DNA of 64,000 nucleotides from Rhodothermales bacterium (GCA_029249345.1 JAQWHM010000015.1:73036-137035), one strand, 5' to 3'; positions 13,645 through 47,801 are shown, numbered from the stretch's first letter. Notes: generated by a model from the letters alone, not told the origin. Made by a program: numbers and translations.

Positions 13645-13775
13645 GGACCCAACATAAAAAACAGATTAGAATGAAGACACCTAGTTGGGAGACAATAGGA
13701 ACCATCCGGTCACCTTATACCTCACCGGGGATCATTTTCCCCTCTCGAGAGAATAACGGCAGTGACTATAGAATT

Positions 13776-13800
13776 TAAATCAAGGATCAACCTTGATTTA
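13776..13800. promoter_or_regulatory. Perfect 10-bp inverted repeat in the long region upstream of the ribonuclease gene
   Basis: TAAATCAAGG (13776-13785), loop atcaa, CCTTGATTTA (13791-13800). It lies inside the 564-bp non-coding gap 13645-14208 between divergent gltA and the RNase gene. It could be an operator or an RNA hairpin; function unknown. Confidence 0.3.
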
Positions 13801-14208
13801 ACCCGCATGCCCGTTCGCTCTGTCGTTTCAGCGACGTCAAGTCTAAGCTTTGATGTTATCACCCTTGTCAATTTTTGTATCCAAACTCACGGCCATGATC
13901 GTGACGTGGATGATTGACATGCAAGGAATCGCCAGATTTACAAGCCGAATGGAACCCCAGATGCAAATTGAATCGTCCGGATTCGGAATTCAAAATGCAT
14001 CGACCTTCCTATCACAGTTTATCCAGTATTGCAGAACGACCTTCATCAAAGGCGTGCCACTGGAAGGAAATCAAGAAATTCCGTTACGGATTGGTCAGAC
14101 TATTTTCGGCCAACAAGTCCATCTAACTGGGACATTTCACGCTCTAAGAATTCATTCCTTCCGCCATCGGTACATGATGGAAAAACCGTTTCTGCCCGAC
14201 AATCGTTT

Positions 14209-17200
14209 ATGTCGAAAGAAATTGTTGTTAACAAAGGAGAGCAGACCCGGATCGCCATCGTTGAGAACGGTGATCTTGCGGAGCTTTTTATCGAAAATCA
14301 GGAGCACGAACGCACCATTGGGAATATTTTTCTTGGCAGGGTCCGACGGATCATGCCGAGTATCCAAGCGGCGTTTGTAGATATTGGGCAGAAGCAGGAT
14401 GCATTCCTGCATTTTTCCGATCTGATTGAAAATGTAGAAGACTGGATGCGGTACGCAGGTACTGATCGTCCTGTCATCGGCAAGTTCGAGGGGAACTATA
14501 CCACCAAACCGGCCAAAAAGAAGCGGCGACACCCTAGCGGTTCTCAAGACCGACGAGGCCGAGGAAACGGCAGCTCTTCCGGCGACCATCATCACGTAGC
14601 TGACGAGAAAAGCAGAGACAAGCGAAAGTCTGCTCAGCAGCGCCAACACGGCCGACGCGACTCCTCGCATGATTCTCGCGGCGGTTCGGATGACGTGCCT
14701 ATGGTAGACCCCACGACTTTTCTCAAGAAGGATCAGCCGATTTTGGTCAAAATCAGTAAGGAGCCGATTGCCAATAAGGGCAGTCGGATCACGACGGATA
14801 TCTCTCTTGCTGGAAGATTCTTGGTCTTGGTGCCGATGGCCAATTATGTGGCTGTTTCCAAGAAGATCATGTCTTTTAAAGAACGCCGTCGTTTGCGGGC
14901 TCTGGCAAAAAGTCTTTTGCCTGAAGGGTTTGGCGTTATCGTTCGAACCGTTGCAGACGGGCGAAGTGCAAAGGCATTGGACACAGATCTGAATCTTCTG
15001 ATCGATAAGTGGAAAAAGCTTGAGCAGAAAATGCACACGGGGCCCAAGCCTCCTTCGGTAGTCCACGAAGATGTGAATATGGTTTCCTCAATTATGAGAG
15101 ACCTGTTTACCGAAGATTATGATCGCATTTTAATTGACGATCAGCGTCTGTACAGAAACTTAAAAGGATATGTTCAGGCGATTGCACCTCAACTGGCAGA
15201 TAATGTGATACATCATCAAGATGAAAAGCCCGTTTTTGAAAAGGTTGGAATTGCCAACGCGGTTCAAGAAGCGTTTGAGGATCGCGTAAATCTACCATCG
15301 GGTGGATATCTGTTCATTGAGCAGACCGAAGCGATGCATGTGATTGACGTAAACTCAGGGCGTGCCGGTCGCGGACTTTCTCAGGAAGAAAATTCGCTGC
15401 GGGTAAATATTGAATCTGCCCGTGTGTTGTGTAAGCAGGTTAGGTTGAGAGATTTAGGCGGAATTATAGTGGTTGACTTCATTGACATGCGCAATGACAG
15501 GAATCGCCGTAAGGTTTATGACGCGCTCAAGACCGAGTTTAGGAAAGATCGCGCAGTTACCAAGGTTCTTCCCATGAGTGATTTTGGGCTCATCCAGATC
15601 ACTAGGCAGCGATTACGACCTAGTATTACAAAAACATTTTCGCTTCCAGAGGGTGGAGAGAAGCTCCCACTCACCCATCGCGATAAAGGAACTGTACAGT
15701 ATGTTGATGCAGGGCACGCCAGGATTGAACCGGTAGATCTGCGTTCGAAAGTTGAGGAGTGGATTGCTGATTTCAAGAATTCTGGACTTGGCGGTAAAGT
15801 GCGCTTAGTGGTTCACCCGTTCACAGCATTGTATTTCAAAGAAGGATTATTTTCAACCACCTTCAAATGGTATCTGAAATACGGTGTTCGTGTCAAGGTC
15901 GAAGAGGATTCTAAAGTTGATCCCCTTTCATTTCAGTTTTTTGAGGTGAAGTCCGGGAAAAACATCTCGAAGTTGCCTCGCAAACCGCAAGCAAAAAAGG
16001 AAGGGCGGAAGCCTCAAACCGACAATCGACGTGGTTCAAAAGGAGCTAAACGCTCTCATGACTCCAGGGATGGTGGAGAGCGTAAAGGGCGATCCTCTTC
16101 ACAGAGTAGTAATTCAGGCCGAGGAAGGCGGCGACCAGAGGGAGCCGCTGGAGGTGGCTCTTCGGATTCTAATAGAAGGGGACGAGGCGCTGATTCAACG
16201 TCCCGCGATGGGGGTAGAGGCGATTCACGTCGAGATGATTCACGCCGCTCCGACTCGCGTCGTAGTGATTCCTCGTCCCGCGATGGGGGTAGAGAGGATT
16301 CACGCCGAGATGATTCACGTCGAGATGATTCACGTCGCTCCGATTCACGTAGAGATGATTCACGCCGCTCCGACTCGCGTCGTAGTGATTCCTCGTCCCG
16401 CGATGGGGGTAGAGATGATTCACGTCGAGATGATTCACGTCGAGATGATTCACGTCGAGATGATTCACGCCGAGATGATTCACGCCGAGATGATTCACGC
16501 CGCTCCGACTCGCGTCGTAGTGATTCCTCGTCCCGCGATGGGGCTAGAGATGATTCACGCCGAGATGATTCACGCCGCTCCGACTCGCGTCGTAGTGATT
16601 CCTCGTCCCGCGATGGGGATAGAGATGATTCACGCCGCTCCGACTCACGTCGTACTGATTCCTCATCCCGTGATGACTCACGTCAACAATCTTCCCGCGA
16701 AGCAACATTGCCCGCAGCGTCACCCGCAAAGGCAATTACTGAAAGCCCAGTTGAGAAGAAGATTGAGCCTCGGCCAGATTTGACTACTGGAATTACGCGT
16801 GCCGCGAAACCAGAGGCTGCGAAACCAAAGATGATCGCCTCAAAGCCAGAAGTGAAAAAGCTTGCGGCTGAAACGGCTACTCTTCCTGAACAGGTTAAAG
16901 AGGTCGTTGCTTCTGCGCCCAAGGCCGAAGTGAAAACTGAATCAGCTAGTGTTGAGAAGCCAAAGACCGTAAAGGCTAAGGCACCAACCAAGGTCAAAGC
17001 AAAAGCCAAAGCGCCGGCCGAGGCTAAAGAGTCAGCGAAAGAGAAGGCACCTGCTAAGGCGAAGGCACCTGCTAAGGCTAAGGCATCAGCGAAAGAGAAG
17101 GCACCAGCCAAGGCTAAGGCACCAGCGAAAGCGAAAGCACCAGCCAGGGCTAAGGCACCAGCGAAAGCGAAAGCACCAGCCAAGGCTAAAGCGCCTGAGA

Positions 17201-17394
17201 AAGCCAAGGCACCAGCCAAGGCTAAAGCGCCTGAGAAAGCCAAGGCACCAGCTAAAACGAAACCAGCATCTAAAAAAGCTGCATCACCTGAGACAAAAAA
17301 GGCTTCAACCAGTCCTTCTCGAGTGTACACCATAGATCTGACTTCTAAAGCTCAAAATGCGGCCTCAAAAGGTGACGACTCAGACGGAGAGTAA
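14209..17394 (+). CDS. Rne/Rng-family endoribonuclease (RNase E/G) with internal basic insert and ~480-aa repeat-built disordered C-terminal tail
   Basis: The track ORF starts at 14029, but the first 60 codons look non-protein-like. ATG at 14209 gives MSKEIVVNKGEQTRIAIVENGDLAELFIENQEHERTIGNIFLGRVRRIMPSIQAAFVDIG (the canonical RNase E/G N-terminus and S1 domain). The catalytic core includes GGYLFIEQTEAMHVIDVNSG and LGGIIVVDFIDM. The tail runs from about 15960. Confidence 0.92.
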   Translation: MSKEIVVNKGEQTRIAIVENGDLAELFIENQEHERTIGNIFLGRVRRIMPSIQAAFVDIGQKQDAFLHFSDLIENVEDWMRYAGTDRPVIGKFEGNYTTKPAKKKRRHPSGSQDRRGRGNGSSSGDHHHVADEKSRDKRKSAQQRQHGRRDSSHDSRGGSDDVPMVDPTTFLKKDQPILVKISKEPIANKGSRITTDISLAGRFLVLVPMANYVAVSKKIMSFKERRRLRALAKSLLPEGFGVIVRTVADGRSAKALDTDLNLLIDKWKKLEQKMHTGPKPPSVVHEDVNMVSSIMRDLFTEDYDRILIDDQRLYRNLKGYVQAIAPQLADNVIHHQDEKPVFEKVGIANAVQEAFEDRVNLPSGGYLFIEQTEAMHVIDVNSGRAGRGLSQEENSLRVNIESARVLCKQVRLRDLGGIIVVDFIDMRNDRNRRKVYDALKTEFRKDRAVTKVLPMSDFGLIQITRQRLRPSITKTFSLPEGGEKLPLTHRDKGTVQYVDAGHARIEPVDLRSKVEEWIADFKNSGLGGKVRLVVHPFTALYFKEGLFSTTFKWYLKYGVRVKVEEDSKVDPLSFQFFEVKSGKNISKLPRKPQAKKEGRKPQTDNRRGSKGAKRSHDSRDGGERKGRSSSQSSNSGRGRRRPEGAAGGGSSDSNRRGRGADSTSRDGGRGDSRRDDSRRSDSRRSDSSSRDGGREDSRRDDSRRDDSRRSDSRRDDSRRSDSRRSDSSSRDGGRDDSRRDDSRRDDSRRDDSRRDDSRRDDSRRSDSRRSDSSSRDGARDDSRRDDSRRSDSRRSDSSSRDGDRDDSRRSDSRRTDSSSRDDSRQQSSREATLPAASPAKAITESPVEKKIEPRPDLTTGITRAAKPEAAKPKMIASKPEVKKLAAETATLPEQVKEVVASAPKAEVKTESASVEKPKTVKAKAPTKVKAKAKAPAEAKESAKEKAPAKAKAPAKAKASAKEKAPAKAKAPAKAKAPARAKAPAKAKAPAKAKAPEKAKAPAKAKAPEKAKAPAKTKPASKKAASPETKKASTSPSRVYTIDLTSKAQNAASKGDDSDGE
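16201..16680 (+). repeat. In-frame nested tandem repeat (macro-units of 75/120/135/75/60 bp built from 15-bp modules) encoding SRDGGRxDS(RRDDS)n RRSDSRRSDSS
   Basis: Macro-units each begin tcccgcgatgggg at 16201, 16276, 16396, 16531 and 16606, with a degenerate copy at 16666. The internal 15-bp module is cgagatgattcacgY, with variable copy number per unit. Confidence 0.95.
16960..17280 (+). repeat. In-frame low-complexity repeat encoding (K/E)AKAPA units (Ala/Lys/Pro-rich, histone-H1/AlgP-like)
   Basis: Roughly 18-bp periodicity (gcgaaggcacctgctaag variants). The protein reads KAKAPTKVKAKAKAPAEAKESAKEKAPAKAKAPAKAKASAKEKAPAKAKAPAKAKAPARAKAPAKAKAPAKAKAPEKAKAPAKAKAPEKAKAPAKTKP. Confidence 0.95.
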
Positions 17395-17470: not shown

Positions 17471-18193
17471 ATGAGATTGCGTCTATTCACTGTTATGTGT
17501 TTTGTCTTGGTCGCCGATGCGCGCGCCCAGGTACCCTATGGACAGCAGGATATACCTTCCCAGAGAGCAGGTCTAATGATGTCTACATTGGACTTCAAGT
17601 TTGTTGGAAACGCACCCTCTGAGCTTGTGTTTGCCTTCACGAATCCAACCTACGGAGTCTTCTATAGCAGACAGGAGATCTTTTTCTCTTATACCCGTGG
17701 GGCGCAGGACCTTAGCGGTGGCGATCGTCTTGTACTTTCGGATGCCACTATGTCTGGTTGGGCGCCCGTTCGACCATTTAAAGGAGATACACCTAGGAAG
17801 CTAGATGTGTTTTTCCCTCTCGGATTAAACAGTGACTTCAGGAAAATCGTTCGGACCAAGGGATCGACTGAAATTGATGCCTTTGAATACACTGTTGTCG
17901 CAGTGGGAGCAGGCGTAGGTTTCGGAATAGAAACAGGTGCAGGATACCTTTCAGGGTATGCCCTTCCGTTCTTTGGTATCGCTTCTCGATCATTTGGAAA
18001 TGATACAGATACGTCAGCCATCGTGACTGCAAACGCCGAATGGCTGTCTCGTCCATTTTTAGGCCGTTTTGGGGTCTCCGTTGGATATGGGTATAGATGG
18101 CAGAAGTGGTATTCAGATGTGGGCGATATTACGGGTGATTCTTTTGATTATGTTGGGTCAAAGCACACCGTGCGGATTGGTTTGTCATATTAG
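17471..18193 (+). CDS. Hypothetical outer-membrane beta-barrel-like protein
   Basis: The track ORF starts at 17411 (TTG). ATG at 17471 gives MRLRLFTVMCFVLVADARAQ, a signal peptide. Alternating beta-strand-like pattern, Gly/aromatic-rich, C-terminal ...TVRIGLSY. Confidence 0.65.
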   Translation: MRLRLFTVMCFVLVADARAQVPYGQQDIPSQRAGLMMSTLDFKFVGNAPSELVFAFTNPTYGVFYSRQEIFFSYTRGAQDLSGGDRLVLSDATMSGWAPVRPFKGDTPRKLDVFFPLGLNSDFRKIVRTKGSTEIDAFEYTVVAVGAGVGFGIETGAGYLSGYALPFFGIASRSFGNDTDTSAIVTANAEWLSRPFLGRFGVSVGYGYRWQKWYSDVGDITGDSFDYVGSKHTVRIGLSY

Positions 18194-18257: not shown

Positions 18258-18548
18258 ATGAAGACAGTACAGATCGTCAAGGAACTGGAGGCAGCTGTTG
18301 AGCAGCTCGGCCTCCGCGTGAGAAGGGAAAAAGGCAATTTTCGCGGTGGCTACTGTGTGCGCAATGAGGAAGAGTTTCTGATGTTGAACCGTGTTCATCC
18401 TCCGGAAGTCCATCTCGCCGTACTAGCGGATGCATTGAAAACGATGGACGTAGATTCAGTGTACTTAAGACCTTTGGTGAGGCAGGCGCTAGAAGATGCC
18501 TGGGCTCGAAATGACGTTATTGATATCAAAGCAGAGGATGGTGACTAA
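18258..18548 (+). CDS. Small hypothetical protein (96 aa)
   Basis: ATG-initiated ORF with no competing gene. Its stop overlaps the ATG of the downstream MBL gene by 11 nt. No family recognised. Confidence 0.6.
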   Translation: MKTVQIVKELEAAVEQLGLRVRREKGNFRGGYCVRNEEEFLMLNRVHPPEVHLAVLADALKTMDVDSVYLRPLVRQALEDAWARNDVIDIKAEDGD

Positions 18549-19341
18549 GTTGAGCTACGCCAAAGTGCGACTTCTTGGAACGGGGACCTCAACGGGAGTA
18601 CCTGTTATCGATTGTTCTTGTCCAACGTGCACCTCTACCAACCCAAAAGACAACAGGTTGCGCTGTGCCGCGTATCTAGAAGTGGACGGAACACACATTT
18701 TAATTGATGTGGGCCCTGATTTTCGGCAGCAAGCCTTACGCTATGCGATTCCGGATATTGATGCTGTTCTCATCACACATCACCATTTTGATCATGTCTC
18801 TGGAATGGATGATTTACGACCGTATCTGTTCAAAAACAGGACGTCTATTCCTTGTCATGCCGTGAAGGGTTCGGCTGATGAAGTTCGCAGTATGTTTAGC
18901 TACATATTTAGGGATGGGACGTATCCAGGTGTTCCAAGACTGCATATGCATGACGTGACTGGTCCTTTCGATGTGCAAAGTAGATCGAAGGAAGAGGCAC
19001 CTGTCCGGGTTATTCCTATTCCTGCTGTGCATGGATCATTGGACGTGCTTGGATATCGAGTGGGGAATTTCGCTTACATGACAGACGTCAGTGAAATTCC
19101 ATTTGCATCCCGTTCATTGCTGGAAGGCCTCGAGGTCCTCGTTCTAGATGGTCTTCGTGATAAACCCCATCCTATGCACTTGACCATTGATCAATCGATT
19201 CAATTGGCAACAGAGATAGGGGCAAAGCAAACGTGGTTTACCCACATCGCTCATGACCTCACTCATAGTGAAATCGAGTTGAGAATGCCCGAGGGTATGG
19301 CTCCGGCGTACGACGGGTTGGAATGCACTGTTAGTTTATGA
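18538..19341 (+). CDS. MBL-fold metallo-hydrolase (PhnP/GPMB-like)
   Basis: The track ORF starts at 18496; ATG at 18538 gives MVTKLSYAKVRLLGTGTSTGVP. Motifs HHHFDH and a CxxC pair (CSCPTCTS). Confidence 0.85.
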   Translation: MVTKLSYAKVRLLGTGTSTGVPVIDCSCPTCTSTNPKDNRLRCAAYLEVDGTHILIDVGPDFRQQALRYAIPDIDAVLITHHHFDHVSGMDDLRPYLFKNRTSIPCHAVKGSADEVRSMFSYIFRDGTYPGVPRLHMHDVTGPFDVQSRSKEEAPVRVIPIPAVHGSLDVLGYRVGNFAYMTDVSEIPFASRSLLEGLEVLVLDGLRDKPHPMHLTIDQSIQLATEIGAKQTWFTHIAHDLTHSEIELRMPEGMAPAYDGLECTVSL

Positions 19342-43672: not shown

Positions 43673-45171
43673 TTGAACAGGTCCGGGGATTTTCTTCGTT
43701 GGGTGGCCTGTTCGTACGAGTAGGCAAACCTGATCAAATCTGGTTCTGCGAAGAGTCTTCCGATAAAGGTCATCCCAACGGGAAGTCCTCCTTCGGTAAA
43801 TCCGATGGGGACCTGAATGGCAGGGAGGCCGGACTGCGGAGATAAGTACTGGCTGTTATCTCCGGCTGGAGAGTCCCAATCACCAATTTCTCGCGCCGGA
43901 TAGCTCCAGGTTGGGTAAACGAAGGCATCCAACTCATGTACGTCCATTGCGCTGAGCACCGTCTCCCGAAATGTAATATTTGGCTGATGAGTATAGAGGT
44001 CAGGGCATGGTGGCTCAGTCCATGCGGCCGTGAACTCGAGCGTGCCTTTGATGTAATCGGCGTACAGACCTGTCTCGATGATGTCGTTCAATGTACCGTA
44101 TGGAAATGATGCCCCACGGGAAGCAAAGTATTGCTCGACATCGTTCTTGAAGACCTCGCACCAGATGTCCTCGCTCATCTCCAGATTTGGGATATCAAAC
44201 GGATCGATAAGTATTGCACCGGCTGCCTCAAGATCCGAAACGGCCTCTTCCATACGCGCCAGAACATCCGCATTAGTTGAGTCCGGGCGCATATACCACC
44301 TGAATACTCCGATTCTGGCATCTTTAAGGCCATCTAGGTCTAGATAGTCCAAGTAGCTTTCAGGCATCTGACCTTCACTGCGAGCCGTTATGGGATCAGC
44401 CGGGTCGTGTCCAGCTATGACGTCCAACACTCTCGCTGCGTCCTCAACGGTGCGGGCCATCGGGCCACCAATGTCGTTGCGCAAATAGAGCGGTACAATG
44501 CCATCTCGGCTCGTGAGTCCCATGGTTGAACGGATTCCAACGAGCGCATTGTGGCTCGATGGCCCGCGAATCGAATTCCCGGTATCAGTGCCCAGTCCGA
44601 TCAATCCTAGGTTAGCGGCAACGGCTGCTGCGGTTCCTCCACTTGAACCAGCGGGCACGCGGGATAAATCATAGGGGTTGCGGGTGGTGCCATCGATAGA
44701 GCTAACCGTTACGAAAGGAGAAAAGGCCCATTCAGCCATATTCGTTTTTCCGAGAATCACGGCTCCTGCCTCTCGAAGTCGTGCGACTTGCCAAGCATCG
44801 TCAGGCGGAAGGAGCCCTTCGAGGGCCTTCGAACCGGCAGTAGTTTGCAGGTCGAAAGTATCATAATTGTCCTTGATGACGACTGGAATTCCGTGCAGGG
44901 GCCTAAGAACACCGGTACGCCTAAATTCTTCGTCTAATTTGGCAGACGAAGCGATAGCACGCTCGTTTAAAATGATGAATGCATTAAGCGTATCATCATA
45001 TTCGGCGATGCGTTCTAGGTATAACTCTGTTAACTGCTGCGCTGTAAGGGTACCGGCTTCGAAAGCTGCATGGACGTCAGAGACGGTCGTTTCTCTGACG
45101 TCAAAGGCTGGCGACGAACAGGCTGAAAGCACCAACAGGGAGAGACCTATAAAACTAATATGATTTTTCAT
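43669..45171 (-). CDS. Amidase-signature-family amidase, secreted lipoprotein
   Basis: 500 aa. Lipobox LSACSS. Amidase signature [32 protein letters not shown] and catalytic-Lys context PVVIKDN. Confidence 0.9.
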
Positions 45172-47801
45172 CTTGGTGGGGCGATGGATTTTAAAAACTG
45201 GTCTGCTCCGGTGATCACACTAAAATTGTGATACATGTCAGGGTCTTCTTCCGATTCGAAAATGAGTATTTCTCCGGAATCAAGCATGTGACCACTATAG
45301 AAATATTCTGATTCATAGAGAAGAGTAGGCTCTCCAAAAACACTAACCCGCCCTGAAGCAGACAGACTTTGCTGCAGTAACCTGTTTTCGTTGTAGTCAT
45401 TGAGCAACAGAGCCTTTGAATCTGTCGTCCAGGATTCTAGGATAAAAAAGTCTCCATCAAGGGACAGTCGTCCTATTCCATTCCGGGGCGAAACGGAAAC
45501 CTGAGCATTCCCGTTCACAATGTGGGTGTAGGCTACCCGTTGACCATCGGGGCTAAACTGCCCATTTAACGCCTCCAGGCGCTGATCCAGAAACGGGGTA
45601 AATTCAGACGTATTGAGGTCCAGTAGCCCGAAGCGCTGCGCATCACTTTCAAAAGACGATGATGAGATCAGCAAAAAGTTAGCGTCAGGTGTCCAGTCGT
45701 TAATGGCGATGCTTTCCCTGTTCCCCATTGGAAACGAACGCCGTTGAGTTGGATCAGAAACCGAAATGATCTCAATATATTCTTCCCCATTCCTATCTGT
45801 GACGTAGGCGATTTGGTCCTCAGACGCAGAAAACGTCGGTTCTTCAATTAGAGGTTCCTGTATCAGGACCTCTTCATACGATGTGTAGGGATCCGAAATC
45901 AGCATCTCCATCGAGTTCTCGCCGACATCTCTAACGGTAACTACTGTGCCCTTTCCGGAGACGCCGGGAATTGTGCTGCTTGTAGACGTGAGGGTAAAGG
46001 GAGCGTTATCCGGATCATTGAGCTTCCAGGCTCTAAAACTCTCTTCTTGCGGTTCGGGTTGATAGATGATCCAATGATTTGGGTGATATAAGACCGAATG
46101 CATATTTGCATTAAACAAGTTGACTTTAGGTCCCGTCATGGAAAGGGTGGCCAAATCAAAGGGTTGAGCTACAATCTGATCGCTATCCCACAAGGAATAA
46201 ATGAGGTGACCGCTTGGTGCATATTTGGCATGAAGACCTCCGCTAATTACCAAGGTTGATTCACCCGTATCTCGATCTACTACACGAATCTCACTCTCTT
46301 GGTCGGCGGCGTCCATAATGGCCGTGTACAAAACGTATCTGGAATCAGGAAGGAGCTTGGGCCACCAATAAAAACGCTCGCCCTTCAACGTATCCGGTGA
46401 TGCTACAACAGAAGACGGATCTCCATTTAGGTACAGTTCACGAATGACACCGTTTTGGGGGTCGATTAAAATGGAGTTATTGGAAGACCACTCGATATCT
46501 GAGTTAGCAGCCCCATCCAGCGTGGACAGTAGTTGCCCAGACGGGGAGTACAGATATAGGGATGTTGTACTCGCAACAGCAAGAGTCTCTCCGTCAGGCG
46601 AATATTCGACTGCCGACATTTCGTCTAAATCTGCTATTTTGAGAGTTTCTCCTGCCCTCAAATCTCTACGGAAGAGTCCGATCATTCCGGATGACGTATC
46701 CACTCCGTTGAAGACCACATACTGACCATCAGGCGAAAAATCAGGGTACCCTGCCTCTCTGACTTCTGGAAAAGTCAGCGTGAACCGAAAGGAATCCTGT
46801 GATTCAGGAGCGGGTGGGGATCCCGTCAATGATCCTGCAATGAACCCGCCTGTAAGCAGTAAGGCGCCCAAGGCGTAGGCCATCCAGGAAGGGAAGGTGG
46901 TCTTTTTCTCTGGCTCTTGAGCGAGTGTGTGGTGGGCCGAAGCTGAAATACTAGACACTCTTGAGGGACGATGAACTACGTTCTTTAAGTCCACAATGAG
47001 ATCTGCTGCAGAGTTATATCGAGAGGACGCTTCTTTAGCAAAAAGCTTATTCGTGATCCATTCCAAGTCCATTGGTACGCCCGTACGCAATGCCGTCAAT
47101 GGCTTGGGCTCCTCATTCATGATCGAATACACGATCGCTTGTTCGTAATCTCCTCCAAACGGCAGTGTGCCGGTAATCATTTCGTAGATCACGACGCCAA
47201 GCGCCCACAGATCCGTGCGGTGATCCACTTCGTTACCCCGTGCCTGCTCGGGACTCATGTAGGCTATCGTTCCCATGGTTGAGCCCATTCGGGTTAGCAT
47301 GGTCGACTGAGCCGTTTTGGCTAATCCGAAGTCTAGCACTTTGGCTCGGGCATTTTTGTCGAGCATGACATTGGCTGACTTGATGTCCCGGTGCACAATG
47401 CCTTTTTCATGGGCTTCTTTGAGGGCTTCCGCAATTTCGGTGGCAATACGAATGGCTTCCTCAATGACCATGGGGCCTTCCTTGATCCGCGTTTCAAGGG
47501 GTTGTCCATCAATGAACTCCATGGCGATAAATGGCCTTAAATCATCACCGCTGGATCCTTCTGGAATCGCCTCATCGATTTCAAAAATGCTGGCAATGTG
47601 AGGATGATGGAGTTGTGCAGCAGCTTTTGCCTCTCGATAAAAACGAGTCCGGTCGTCCTGATTGGTCAAGGCGGTCGATGGGAGCAGCTTGAGCGCAACC
47701 GTTCGGTCTAGCTTCGTATCGGTTGCTTTATACACAATGCCCATGCCACCGCGGCCTATTTCGGCGTCGATGGTATAGTGGGAGAGTTTCGTACCGACCA
47801 T
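45168..47801 (-). CDS. Hanks-type Ser/Thr protein kinase with one TM and periplasmic TolB-like (PD40/WD40-like) beta-propeller
   Basis: 877 aa. Kinase motifs [59 protein letters not shown]. Repeated SPDG motifs ([30 protein letters not shown]). ATGA overlap with the amidase gene. Confidence 0.92.

Follow-up and report, generated by a model that had tools for sequence, protein, structure and literature searches.

A modular, predicted disordered C-terminal tail on an Rne/Rng family ribonuclease of Rhodothermales as a candidate scaffold arm

The ribonuclease gene and its tail

We analysed a stretch of 64,000 nucleotides (nt) of DNA from a Rhodothermales bacterium (GCA_029249345.1, JAQWHM010000015.1:73036-137035), referred to as the window throughout, and concentrate here on a gene for a ribonuclease of the Rne/Rng family whose product carries a long, repeat-built tail behind its catalytic core (Table 1). 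Rhodothermales belong to the phylum Rhodothermota within the Bacteroidota/Chlorobiota group. The gene is a single, unbroken open reading frame (ORF) that runs from ATG 14209 (MSKEIVV, continuing as MSKEIVVNKG...) to the stop codon at 17392-17394 and encodes 1061 amino acids (aa). A mechanical ORF list places the start at TTG 14029. An alignment of 40 homologues, in which M1 and K3 never vary, supports ATG 14209 instead, and we take this codon as the real start. An exact look-up of the 1061-aa protein returned no identical record.

The protein matches the Pfam family RNase_E_G (PF10150) over aa 199-468 (E 4.9e-94, 315.2 bits against a cut-off of 25.5), shows a weak Pfam S1 match at aa 37-80 and passes the general Rne/Rng model of NCBIfam, TIGR00757, with 439.8 bits (cut-off 325.95). 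It stays below the cut-off of every one of the equivalog models NF008074, NF052586, NF052588 and NF008689, with scores of 319.7 versus 594 for RNase G, 251.1 versus 908 for E. coli-type RNase E, 260.3 versus 900 for the cyanobacterial and 231.4 versus 1400 for the mycobacterial enzyme. Hence it falls outside the named orthologue groups of both RNase E and RNase G. Upon alignment of the core with the E. coli RNase E structures 2bx2 and 2vrt, the catalytic aspartate motifs were found to be kept (IDVNS and VVDFIDM versus IDINS and VIDFIDM, with D303 and D346 in E. coli), as was the Arg-Thr pair of the 5' sensor (IVRT aligned with E. coli IVRT, R169 and T170). The alignment suggests an Rne/Rng enzyme with conserved catalytic motifs that is apparently active. 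The protomers of RNase E are coupled by the Zn-link CPxCxGxG. This motif is not found in the protein described here: no cysteine follows ...RQRLRPSITKTF, residue 398 is the last one aligned to E. coli, and a 40-sequence consensus has no Cys at the Zn-link position. AlphaFold2 (AF2), run on the full-length protein with a 40-sequence alignment, predicts the corresponding region (window 15610-15720, aa 468-504) to be disordered and models the small domain (aa 505-590) with confidence. With the Zn-link missing, the quaternary structure may be unlike the E. coli tetramer. The core ends with ...FQFFEVKSG at aa 583.

Table 1. Features of the ribonuclease gene and of other genes in the window
Feature	Position	Strand	Basis or remark
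Rne/Rng family ribonuclease gene, 1061 aa + stop	14209..17394	+	ORF list, Pfam, NCBIfam
Catalytic core, aa 1-583: S1, 5' sensor, RNase H-like, DNase I-like and small domain	14209..15957	+	alignment to E. coli RNase E
Predicted disordered basic S1-domain insert, aa 88-170 (~83 aa), net +8	14470..14718	+	AF2, composition, consensus
Segment A, aa 584-662: junction K-x-I-S-K-L-P (KNISKLP in this protein), then basic Arg/Lys/Gly/Ser linker with RG/RGR motifs, net +16	15958..16194	+	
Segment B, aa 663-833: Arg/Asp/Ser mixed-charge repeats, 5 super-units of 24-45 aa	16195..16707	+	TRF arrays
Segment C, aa 834-918: non-repetitive Ala/Pro/Glu/Lys/Thr/Val linker, net +3	16708..16962	+	composition
Segment D, aa 919-1015: Lys/Ala/Pro (KAKAPA) repeats, 97 aa, net +26	16963..17253	+	TRF arrays
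Segment E, aa 1016-1061: C-terminal end with conserved motif and acidic tip GDDSDGE, net +3	17254..17391	+	
Short linear motif PSRVYTIDLTS, aa 1036-1046, holds the only aromatic residue of the tail	17314..17346	+	
Secreted protein, 240 aa, no family match	17471-18193	+	downstream of rne
96-aa protein, no family match	18258-18548	+	downstream of rne
PhnP/PRK02113-like MBL-fold hydrolase	18496-19341	+	downstream of rne
Hanks-type Ser/Thr kinase, 877 aa, PknB-like domain aa 9-284, C-terminal TolB-like beta-propeller repeats	45168-47801	-	

The tail covers aa 584-1061 (window 15958-17391) and with 478 aa and ~51.5 kDa makes up 45% of the protein. The junction motif at the beginning of segment A is common to 14 tails in the form of the reduced-alphabet word DISKIP ([DE]I[ST][KR][ILVM]P, e.g. 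KEISRLP); at the tail junction the consensus of 40 homologues reads SGKEISRLP, and the form K[DE]I[ST]RLP is conserved. Segment B contains 21 DSRR[D/S/T] pentapeptides, and its super-units start with SRDGxR at aa 665, 690, 730, 775 and 800. It consists of 32% R, 30% S (51 serines) and 27.5% D with 0% K, which amounts to 32% basic and 29% acidic residues, a net charge of +6, a fraction of charged residues of 0.61, a net charge per residue of +0.04 and a charge-patterning parameter kappa of 0.007. Segments A and B contain 30-32% basic residues. A preliminary description of this DNA, made from the sequence alone, had likened the Arg/Asp/Ser (RDS) block to eukaryotic arginine/serine (RS) domains. 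In composition this likeness stands, with RS/SR dipeptides covering 46% of the residues of segment B. It does not extend to consecutive RS dipeptides: the segment has no run of two or more of them, and RS domains are defined by at least 50 aa of consecutive RS/SR. Judged by its composition, segment B fits better as an arginine-rich mixed-charge domain, a near-neutral and finely mixed polyampholyte.

Within segment C, the octapeptide TTGITRAA (aa 859-866) is also present in one distant tailed homologue, P0056 (...DKTTGITRAAS...), and could, as a weak candidate, be a second short motif, or else a chance match. Segment D contains 14 KAPAKA-type hexapeptides, 12 of them matching a KAKAP[A/E/T]-like form, is composed of 41% A, 32% K and 13% P (87% K+A+P) and scores 29.3 bits with Pfam DUF1388 (cut-off 25.9). 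It thus has the appearance of a tandem, K/A/P-dominated polycation of the histone H1/AlgP type, in line with the comparison drawn in the preliminary description. That text had further called the two repeat blocks opposite, which is not borne out by their charges, the RDS block being near-neutral (+6) and the KAKAPA block +26.

At the DNA level, Tandem Repeats Finder (TRF) resolved the region 16191-16675 into a 15-nt unit nested in higher-order units of 75, 120 and 135 nt (84-98% matches, scores up to 533) and the region 17021-17256 into an 18/36-nt unit. Head and tail DNA of the super-units are nearly identical and the differences are mostly whole 15-nt units. Because of this near-identity the array must be young or homogenised, evolving by slippage or unequal exchange. 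We dropped a test for selection by comparing codons among the repeats, since the super-units have been duplicated or homogenised too recently to be informative. Three further ORFs overlap this region (16031-16783 (+), 16169-16498 (-) and 16683-17333 (-)); their translations are themselves repetitive (MIHVEMIH..., GALALAGA...), and we read them as by-products of the repeat DNA and not as genes. No other ORF of the window contains RDS or KAP low-complexity blocks.

AF2 returned predicted local distance difference test (pLDDT) values of ~29-36 and no secondary structure across aa 594-1061. The whole tail has a mean hydropathy of 0.31, 45% charged residues and a kappa of 0.10; it is devoid of Cys, and its single aromatic residue is the Tyr of the terminal motif. 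The model and these values point to a long, intrinsically disordered, non-catalytic region. An amphipathic membrane-targeting helix of the beta/gamma-proteobacterial type is not predicted in the tail, as judged by AF2 and by the single aromatic residue. The preliminary description of a ~480-aa, repeat-built and disordered tail at 15960-17394 is therefore upheld by the intact in-frame ORF, the TRF arrays and the disorder prediction that it had proposed, and its counts of 5-6 and about 15 units were essentially right (5 super-units and 14 hexapeptides).

Higher-order repeats of 75-135 nt that are 92-98% identical are hard for short-read assembly, and the repeat region could in principle be an assembly artefact or be frameshifted or pseudogenised. 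The NCBI contig JABHWY010000081.1 of a metagenome-assembled genome (MAG; GCA_018657545.1, Bacteroidetes Order II incertae sedis), which is 99.06% identical over 8080 nt, indeed ends inside the RDS array; its main alignment stops at window 16367 and alternative alignments to other copies overlap, so that the end is ambiguous. The break confirms the start of the array and leaves its exact copy number in the window uncertain. A scan of genome contigs gave two close loci only. Against an artefact, the frame stays open over 1.4 kb of repeats and ends, in the correct frame, in a family-specific motif, and equally long tails are present in orthologues from independent assemblies, namely P0002, which is identical in European Nucleotide Archive (ENA) and Logan assemblies, and P0008, which resides on a 2.6-Mb contig. 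Uncertainty is thereby limited to the exact copy number, and we consider an artefact or a decayed reading frame highly improbable.

Tails, terminal motif and S1-loop inserts in relatives

The 120 closest homologues are proteins from Rhodothermales, Rhodothermia and 'Bacteroidetes' MAGs, and 55 of them carry tails of >150 aa. Clades were delimited by average-linkage clustering of the cores, which is not a proper phylogeny. The clade of the query comprises 27 sequences with cores that are 72-80% identical, and its complete members all have tails of 255-492 aa (25/25); the two exceptions are P0001, which is cut by a contig end, and P0013, which is probably cut too. The preliminary description had held Rne/Rng proteins of Bacteroidota-like genomes to be usually about 500 aa long and tail-less, which would make the tail an oddity of this genome, and had suggested a survey of homologues. 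With 55 tailed proteins among the 120 and the same layout across all 25 complete clade members, the tail is no such oddity. The tails cannot be aligned with one another and each lineage has its own repeat unit (RDNRGRDARGQEGND, GDDENRGRGRS, ERTERQERG, PAAKKPAA). A protein search with the tail alone, likewise suggested before, recovered the same-species partial protein P0001 as its sole true relative and no wider homologue; ten other matches were dismissed as low-complexity resemblance in unrelated proteins. Since only the same species was found, BLAST of the tail cannot trace the history of the tail.

The terminal motif, which the preliminary description had overlooked, is, besides the junction, the only conserved element of the tail. 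It follows the pattern [RKH]-hydrophobic-x-[KT]-[IY]-D-[LF]-[TRS] and occurs once per tail, 13-41 residues from the C-terminus, in 30 of the 55 tailed homologues, versus 0.002 expected from shuffled tails (examples are SNRFVKIDLTS, GNRFQKLDFRV, PSRHRLEKYDFS and GHVYNIDLRS). It is retained in a second clade with a core identity of only ~63% (HVYNIDLRS). Like the junction motif, it has the properties expected of a short conserved motif within otherwise unalignable sequence. A regular-expression scan of all ORFs in the window gave one other match, internal to a 482-aa ORF, which was judged a chance occurrence. Tails of other clades end in QPF[KR]LRYSSSH, e.g. QPFKLRYSSSH (P0041, P0047, P0048, P0051, P0061, P0062), and further Rhodothermales clades have Arg-rich RGRGR or RRSGRRRGSRGGRGRS-type tips at the C-terminus. 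These clade-specific ends may reflect motif turnover with partner co-evolution or may be a divergent form of the same motif.

The order of the modules recurs as well. R exceeds K in the first half of all motif-bearing tails (30/30) and K exceeds R in the second half of 20 of these 30; along the tail, the maxima of R, S and G fall into deciles 2-5 and those of K, A and P into 7-9. Stretches rich in K/A/P recur in the closest orthologues, with P0008 and P0015 matching the histone-like family HC2 (PF07382), and several clade members have K/D/E/S/T-rich sequence in place of AKP. From these regularities we propose that selection acts on architecture, i.e. on length, composition, module order and motif, and not on the sequence of the tail.

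In the query, the insert in the S1 domain has AF2 pLDDT values of <50 for aa 98-164. Its flanks are conserved (KKRR..., ...VADE...; consensus GKKRRRP...H..VAD), R106 is invariant, and the flanks resemble KKRVADDE and AKRVADDE at the start of giant inserts in P0141 and P0147. This site in the S1 loop holds inserts of 385-882 aa in other family members. A core-only search of 1.84 billion 50%-cluster representatives yielded 21,107 family members, the best 150 of which were classified: 69 were compact and 18 were fragments, in 42 the S1 loop held an insert of 150 aa or more (up to 882) and there was no tail, in 15 the only such region was a C-terminal tail of 150 aa or more, and six combined the two. 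An extra disordered region of at least 150 aa, either in the S1 loop or at the C-terminus, was accordingly present in 63 of the 132 scorable representatives among these best 150. The longest inserts, reaching 754-882 aa in the metagenomic representatives P0217, P0243, P0170 and others, go far beyond the 50-150 aa known from alpha-proteobacteria and plants.

The motif of the query tail is also located inside the 385-513-aa S1 inserts of five tail-less Rhodothermales relatives with cores that are 52-59% identical: P0142 (SSRFVIDLTSKSGR), P0141 (RRSPYVIDLTFK), P0145 (RRSGFVIDLSSK), and P0147 and P0149 with two copies each. With a sixth, weaker match in P0219 (TVYDLSS), the motif is found in 6 of 62 disordered segments versus 0.5 in shuffles. 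P0141, whose cluster includes a Rubricoccaceae entry, and P0147 are positional orthologues, because they share the gene neighbourhood of the query gene (citrate synthase, rne, ~100-aa gene, hydrolase of the metallo-beta-lactamase (MBL) fold). As the motif resides in the S1 inserts of positional orthologues, the disordered region together with the motif has changed its position within the protein. Sequence comparison thus suggests that, within the order, a large disordered region with the motif is kept somewhere in the protein while its position has switched.

Some of these data could also be accommodated by a largely neutral repeat expansion, in which slippage-prone arrays are tolerated in a disordered appendage and in which the docking motif, maybe with a minimal basic segment, is what matters. 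The super-units are almost identical in DNA and differ by whole 15-nt units, the 99%-identical strain shows, in this very array, either a collapse or another copy number, every lineage has a distinct repeat unit, and relatives with ~30-aa or no tails exist. Neutral expansion sits poorly, however, with the retention by 25 of 25 complete clade members of tails of at least 255 aa that are R-rich and then K/A/P-rich, and with tail-less lineages that have an equally large S1-loop insert, which suggests that a disordered region is kept somewhere. We therefore judge it distinctly unlikely as the whole explanation.

Proposed function and alternatives

We propose that the tail is a modular, disordered, non-catalytic scaffold arm of a Rhodothermota RNase E-type enzyme, of the degradosome type, and assign a probability of roughly 0.6 to this reading. 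It keeps, as the best explanation for a tail behind intact catalytic motifs, the earlier idea of a scaffold or nucleic-acid-binding domain. The reading builds on the anatomy, the predicted disorder, the conserved architecture and motif and the relocation among orthologues; binding of RNA or other polyanions, clustering and the identity of the partner are what we infer from them and from the precedents cited below. The Arg/Gly/Ser linker and the Arg/Asp/Ser repeats would make many weak arginine contacts with RNA and with one another, and such contacts would raise the local affinity for RNA and promote RNA-dependent clustering of the enzyme. The KAKAPA block would act as an H1/AlgP-like polycation that binds polyanions such as RNA, nucleoid DNA or polyphosphate. 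The motif R-V-Y-T-I-D-L-T-S would be a docking site recruiting a folded partner, and by analogy with the C-terminal sites for polynucleotide phosphorylase (PNPase) in other RNase E proteins the likeliest partner would be a 3' exoribonuclease such as PNPase, or a helicase. The repeat arrays would evolve fast by slippage or unequal recombination, with length, composition, module order and docking motif being kept.

Several observations weigh against a scaffold arm of this kind. AF2 leaves the motif unstructured (pLDDT ~30) and not docked anywhere; docking on the enzyme's own core in cis was likewise considered and was not seen in the full-length model. No PNPase, helicase or enolase gene is located near rne, and the window as a whole contains no gene for a degradosome partner, the neighbours of rne being tricarboxylic acid (TCA)-cycle and housekeeping genes. 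Relatives with a ~30-aa tail or none exist in the same order, showing that a long tail is dispensable for basic enzyme function, and the RDS array is young, so that long-term selection cannot have shaped its exact sequence. Finally, segment B is almost perfectly charge-mixed, and its kappa of 0.007 argues for an expanded chain and not for a blocky condensate driver. Well-mixed polyampholytes reportedly favour expanded, soluble chains, a finding credited to Das and Pappu. Blocky charge patterning is associated with the Caulobacter tail and with the formation of bacterial ribonucleoprotein bodies (BR-bodies).

A bolder variant would have the protein form a condensate-forming hub of RNA decay, with a mixed-charge domain that is convergent with nuclear-speckle proteins and tunable by serine phosphorylation and with an old, portable docking motif (R-hydrophobic-x-hydrophobic-I-D-L-T/S-S) that would recruit the clients of the hub and, along with the disordered region carrying it, has moved between S1 loop and C-terminus. 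We hold this variant to be unlikely. If it were true, the family would provide a natural experiment in which the position of the scaffold within the protein is interchangeable.

Alternatively, the KAKAPA block might park the ribonuclease on nucleoid DNA or polyphosphate (polyP) granules for co-transcriptional or stress-dependent RNA processing, with the Arg/Asp/Ser repeats as a spacer, a tether which in part overlaps with the scaffold arm favoured above. The block's 87% K+A+P and net charge of +26, the K/A/P-rich stretches of the closest orthologues with the HC2 matches of P0008 and P0015, and the lack of a membrane-targeting helix would all suit this function, and the KPAA repeats of AlgP and PhaF bind DNA, with AlgP being found at polyP granules (PMC9239181). 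On the other hand, the predominance of K over R in the second half holds for only 20 of 30 tails, AKP is replaced in several clade members, and conservation of the H1-like block lags behind that of the Arg-rich half and of the docking motif. Polycations, moreover, bind RNA as well as DNA, so that composition does not discriminate. A tether as the principal role is, in our estimate, a possibility of low probability.

A further alternative starts from the serines. Hanks-type kinases could act on the 51 serines in the RDS block, and the phosphorylated polyampholyte would become a polyanion that folds back on the KAKAPA block or frees RNA, thereby regulating RNase activity or clustering. The RDS block is 30% Ser, and phosphorylation of every serine would take it from a net charge of +6 to one of about -100; the preliminary description had mentioned Hanks-type kinases in this genome, and one is indeed encoded in the window (Table 1). 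According to Greig et al., RS domains are phosphorylation-regulated mixed-charge domains in which extra negative charge abolishes condensation (bioRxiv 10.1101/771592). Segment B, however, lacks the consecutive RS dipeptides that are the hallmark of SRPK/CLK substrates, the kinase gene of the window has no evident link to the rne gene, and no kinase is syntenic with the gene in any of seven orthologous loci. In some orthologous repeats Ser is replaced by Gly, Asn, Glu or Gln (P0009 RDNRGRDA, P0021 ERTERQERG), and Ser is therefore not a conserved requirement. A phosphorylation switch hence appears improbable.

The rne gene is surrounded by genes for succinate dehydrogenase subunits, citrate synthase, the secreted 240-aa protein, the 96-aa protein, the MBL hydrolase, an S9 peptidase and a cytochrome c. 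The order succinate dehydrogenase, citrate synthase (-), rne (+), small genes and MBL hydrolase is conserved, and the small gene and the hydrolase stay beside rne across Rhodothermales loci, including those for S1-insert enzymes. No terminator-like site was found after the rne stop codon; co-transcription with the downstream genes is therefore possible.

Between the divergent citrate synthase gene and rne lies a leader of 564 nt (13645-14208), and in orthologues the intergenic region is long as well (593 and 689 nt). Conserved islands recur in five orthologous leaders, especially at ~13975-14100 and 14160-14215, with a palindrome TCCGGATTCGG, a stretch TCACAGTTTATCCAGTATT..GGACGGCCTTC and an invariant CGACAATCGTTTATGTCG, where a 5-bp hairpin includes the start codon. 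RNAalifold on the five leaders pairs an island at ~-220 with one at ~-40, with few compensatory changes and a small covariation term. An Rfam scan of the window, leader included, gave no match at the gathering threshold. The leader may possibly be autoregulatory, like the 5' untranslated region of E. coli rne.

Comparison with known systems

That RNase E carries disordered scaffolds of fast-evolving sequence with conserved short motifs is well known. To our knowledge, nearly all detailed work on such scaffolds concerns Proteobacteria, while Cyanobacteria and Actinobacteria have received some attention. In the literature collection searched, we found nothing on Rne/Rng tails in Rhodothermota or Bacteroidota; an earlier mention in the survey by Ait-Bara and Carpousis (2015) is possible. 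Novelty lies in the lineage, in the use of DSRR and KAKAPA repeats as building blocks, in the particular motif and in the shift of that motif between S1 loop and C-terminus. The motif provides a handle for identifying the partner, and orthologues that have it either in an S1 insert or in a C-terminal tail provide one on the importance of scaffold position. As clean natural model sequences, the two repeat blocks may further serve to study how mixed-charge and polycationic repeats act in bacterial RNA decay. The interest is mainly for specialists in RNA decay and disordered proteins, and current views are not overturned.

Among described enzymes, we first consider RNase E of Pseudomonas aeruginosa, whose C-terminal domain comprises AR4, the REER-repeats, AR1, an AEPV-rich region and the NDPR motif (PMC11964227). 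The RE[E/D]R repeats (8-23 copies, depending on the species) are redundant with two Arg-rich motifs in RNA binding, RNA-dependent foci require the repeats and the Arg-rich motifs, and PNPase is bound by the NDPR motif (PMC11964227). These repeats contradict the preliminary description, which held that proteobacterial tails lack regular repeats of this kind. Both proteins have a disordered region of ~500 aa after an Rne-type core, a repeat of Arg and acidic residues (21 DSRR[D/S] units in the query), Arg-rich segments, an Ala/Pro/Glu/Val-rich stretch and a short conserved motif in disorder, which in the query is a candidate docking site. In contrast to the Pseudomonas enzyme, the query belongs to another phylum, has no membrane-targeting helix and no Zn-link, its repeats are 30% Ser and use Asp instead of Glu, an extra KAKAPA block is present and the motif is unrelated to NDPR; its functions are all inferred.

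RNase E of Caulobacter crescentus is likewise a cytoplasmic-type enzyme with no membrane anchor and combines a charged, disordered S1 insert with a disordered C-terminal region (PMC4245959, PMC13405055). Its RhlB binds to an N-terminal fragment of RNase E that includes the S1 insert, such inserts being 50-150 aa in length (PMC4245959), and partner sites can accordingly be N-terminal or in the tail. In the relatives of the query the S1 inserts extend to 385-882 aa, the motif-bearing ones to 385-513 aa, whereas in the query itself the bulk is C-terminal, the RDS block is finely mixed and the motifs are unrelated. In cyanobacterial RNase E, a nonapeptide of the non-catalytic region serves as the binding site for PNPase (Zhang et al. 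2014, as cited in PMC7144899). The lineage-specific short motif in a variable tail is a shared trait, and the Arg-rich, RRSGRRRGSRGGRGRS-type tips of some Rhodothermales clades resemble it. The cyanobacterial tail, however, is much shorter, and the motif of the query is hydrophobic/acidic (VYTIDL) and not Arg-rich.

The two repeat blocks have counterparts outside RNase E. Segment B shares with the mixed-charge and RS domains of nuclear-speckle proteins a near-neutral polyampholyte of Arg and Asp (plus Ser), with Arg and not Lys, on a protein that handles RNA, and condensation of pure Arg/Asp repeats depends on their length and on Arg and is tuned by net charge (bioRxiv 10.1101/771592). It differs in being bacterial, in having no consecutive RS dipeptides and in the absence of an RNA recognition motif (RRM), so that the composition of segment B indicates convergence and not homology. 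We know of no SRPK/CLK kinases in this bacterial setting. Segment D resembles AlgP, PhaF and histone H1 in its tandem K/A/P repeats, strong positive charge and predicted disorder. It is distinguished from AlgP by its hexapeptide (KAKAPA versus KPAA), by its fusion to a ribonuclease and by its size, 97 aa with a net charge of +26 versus a 154-aa repeat region in a protein with a net charge of +55 as a whole. If the tail is indeed a scaffold arm, a sister phylum of Bacteroidota would build an equivalent of the known RNase E arms from different parts.

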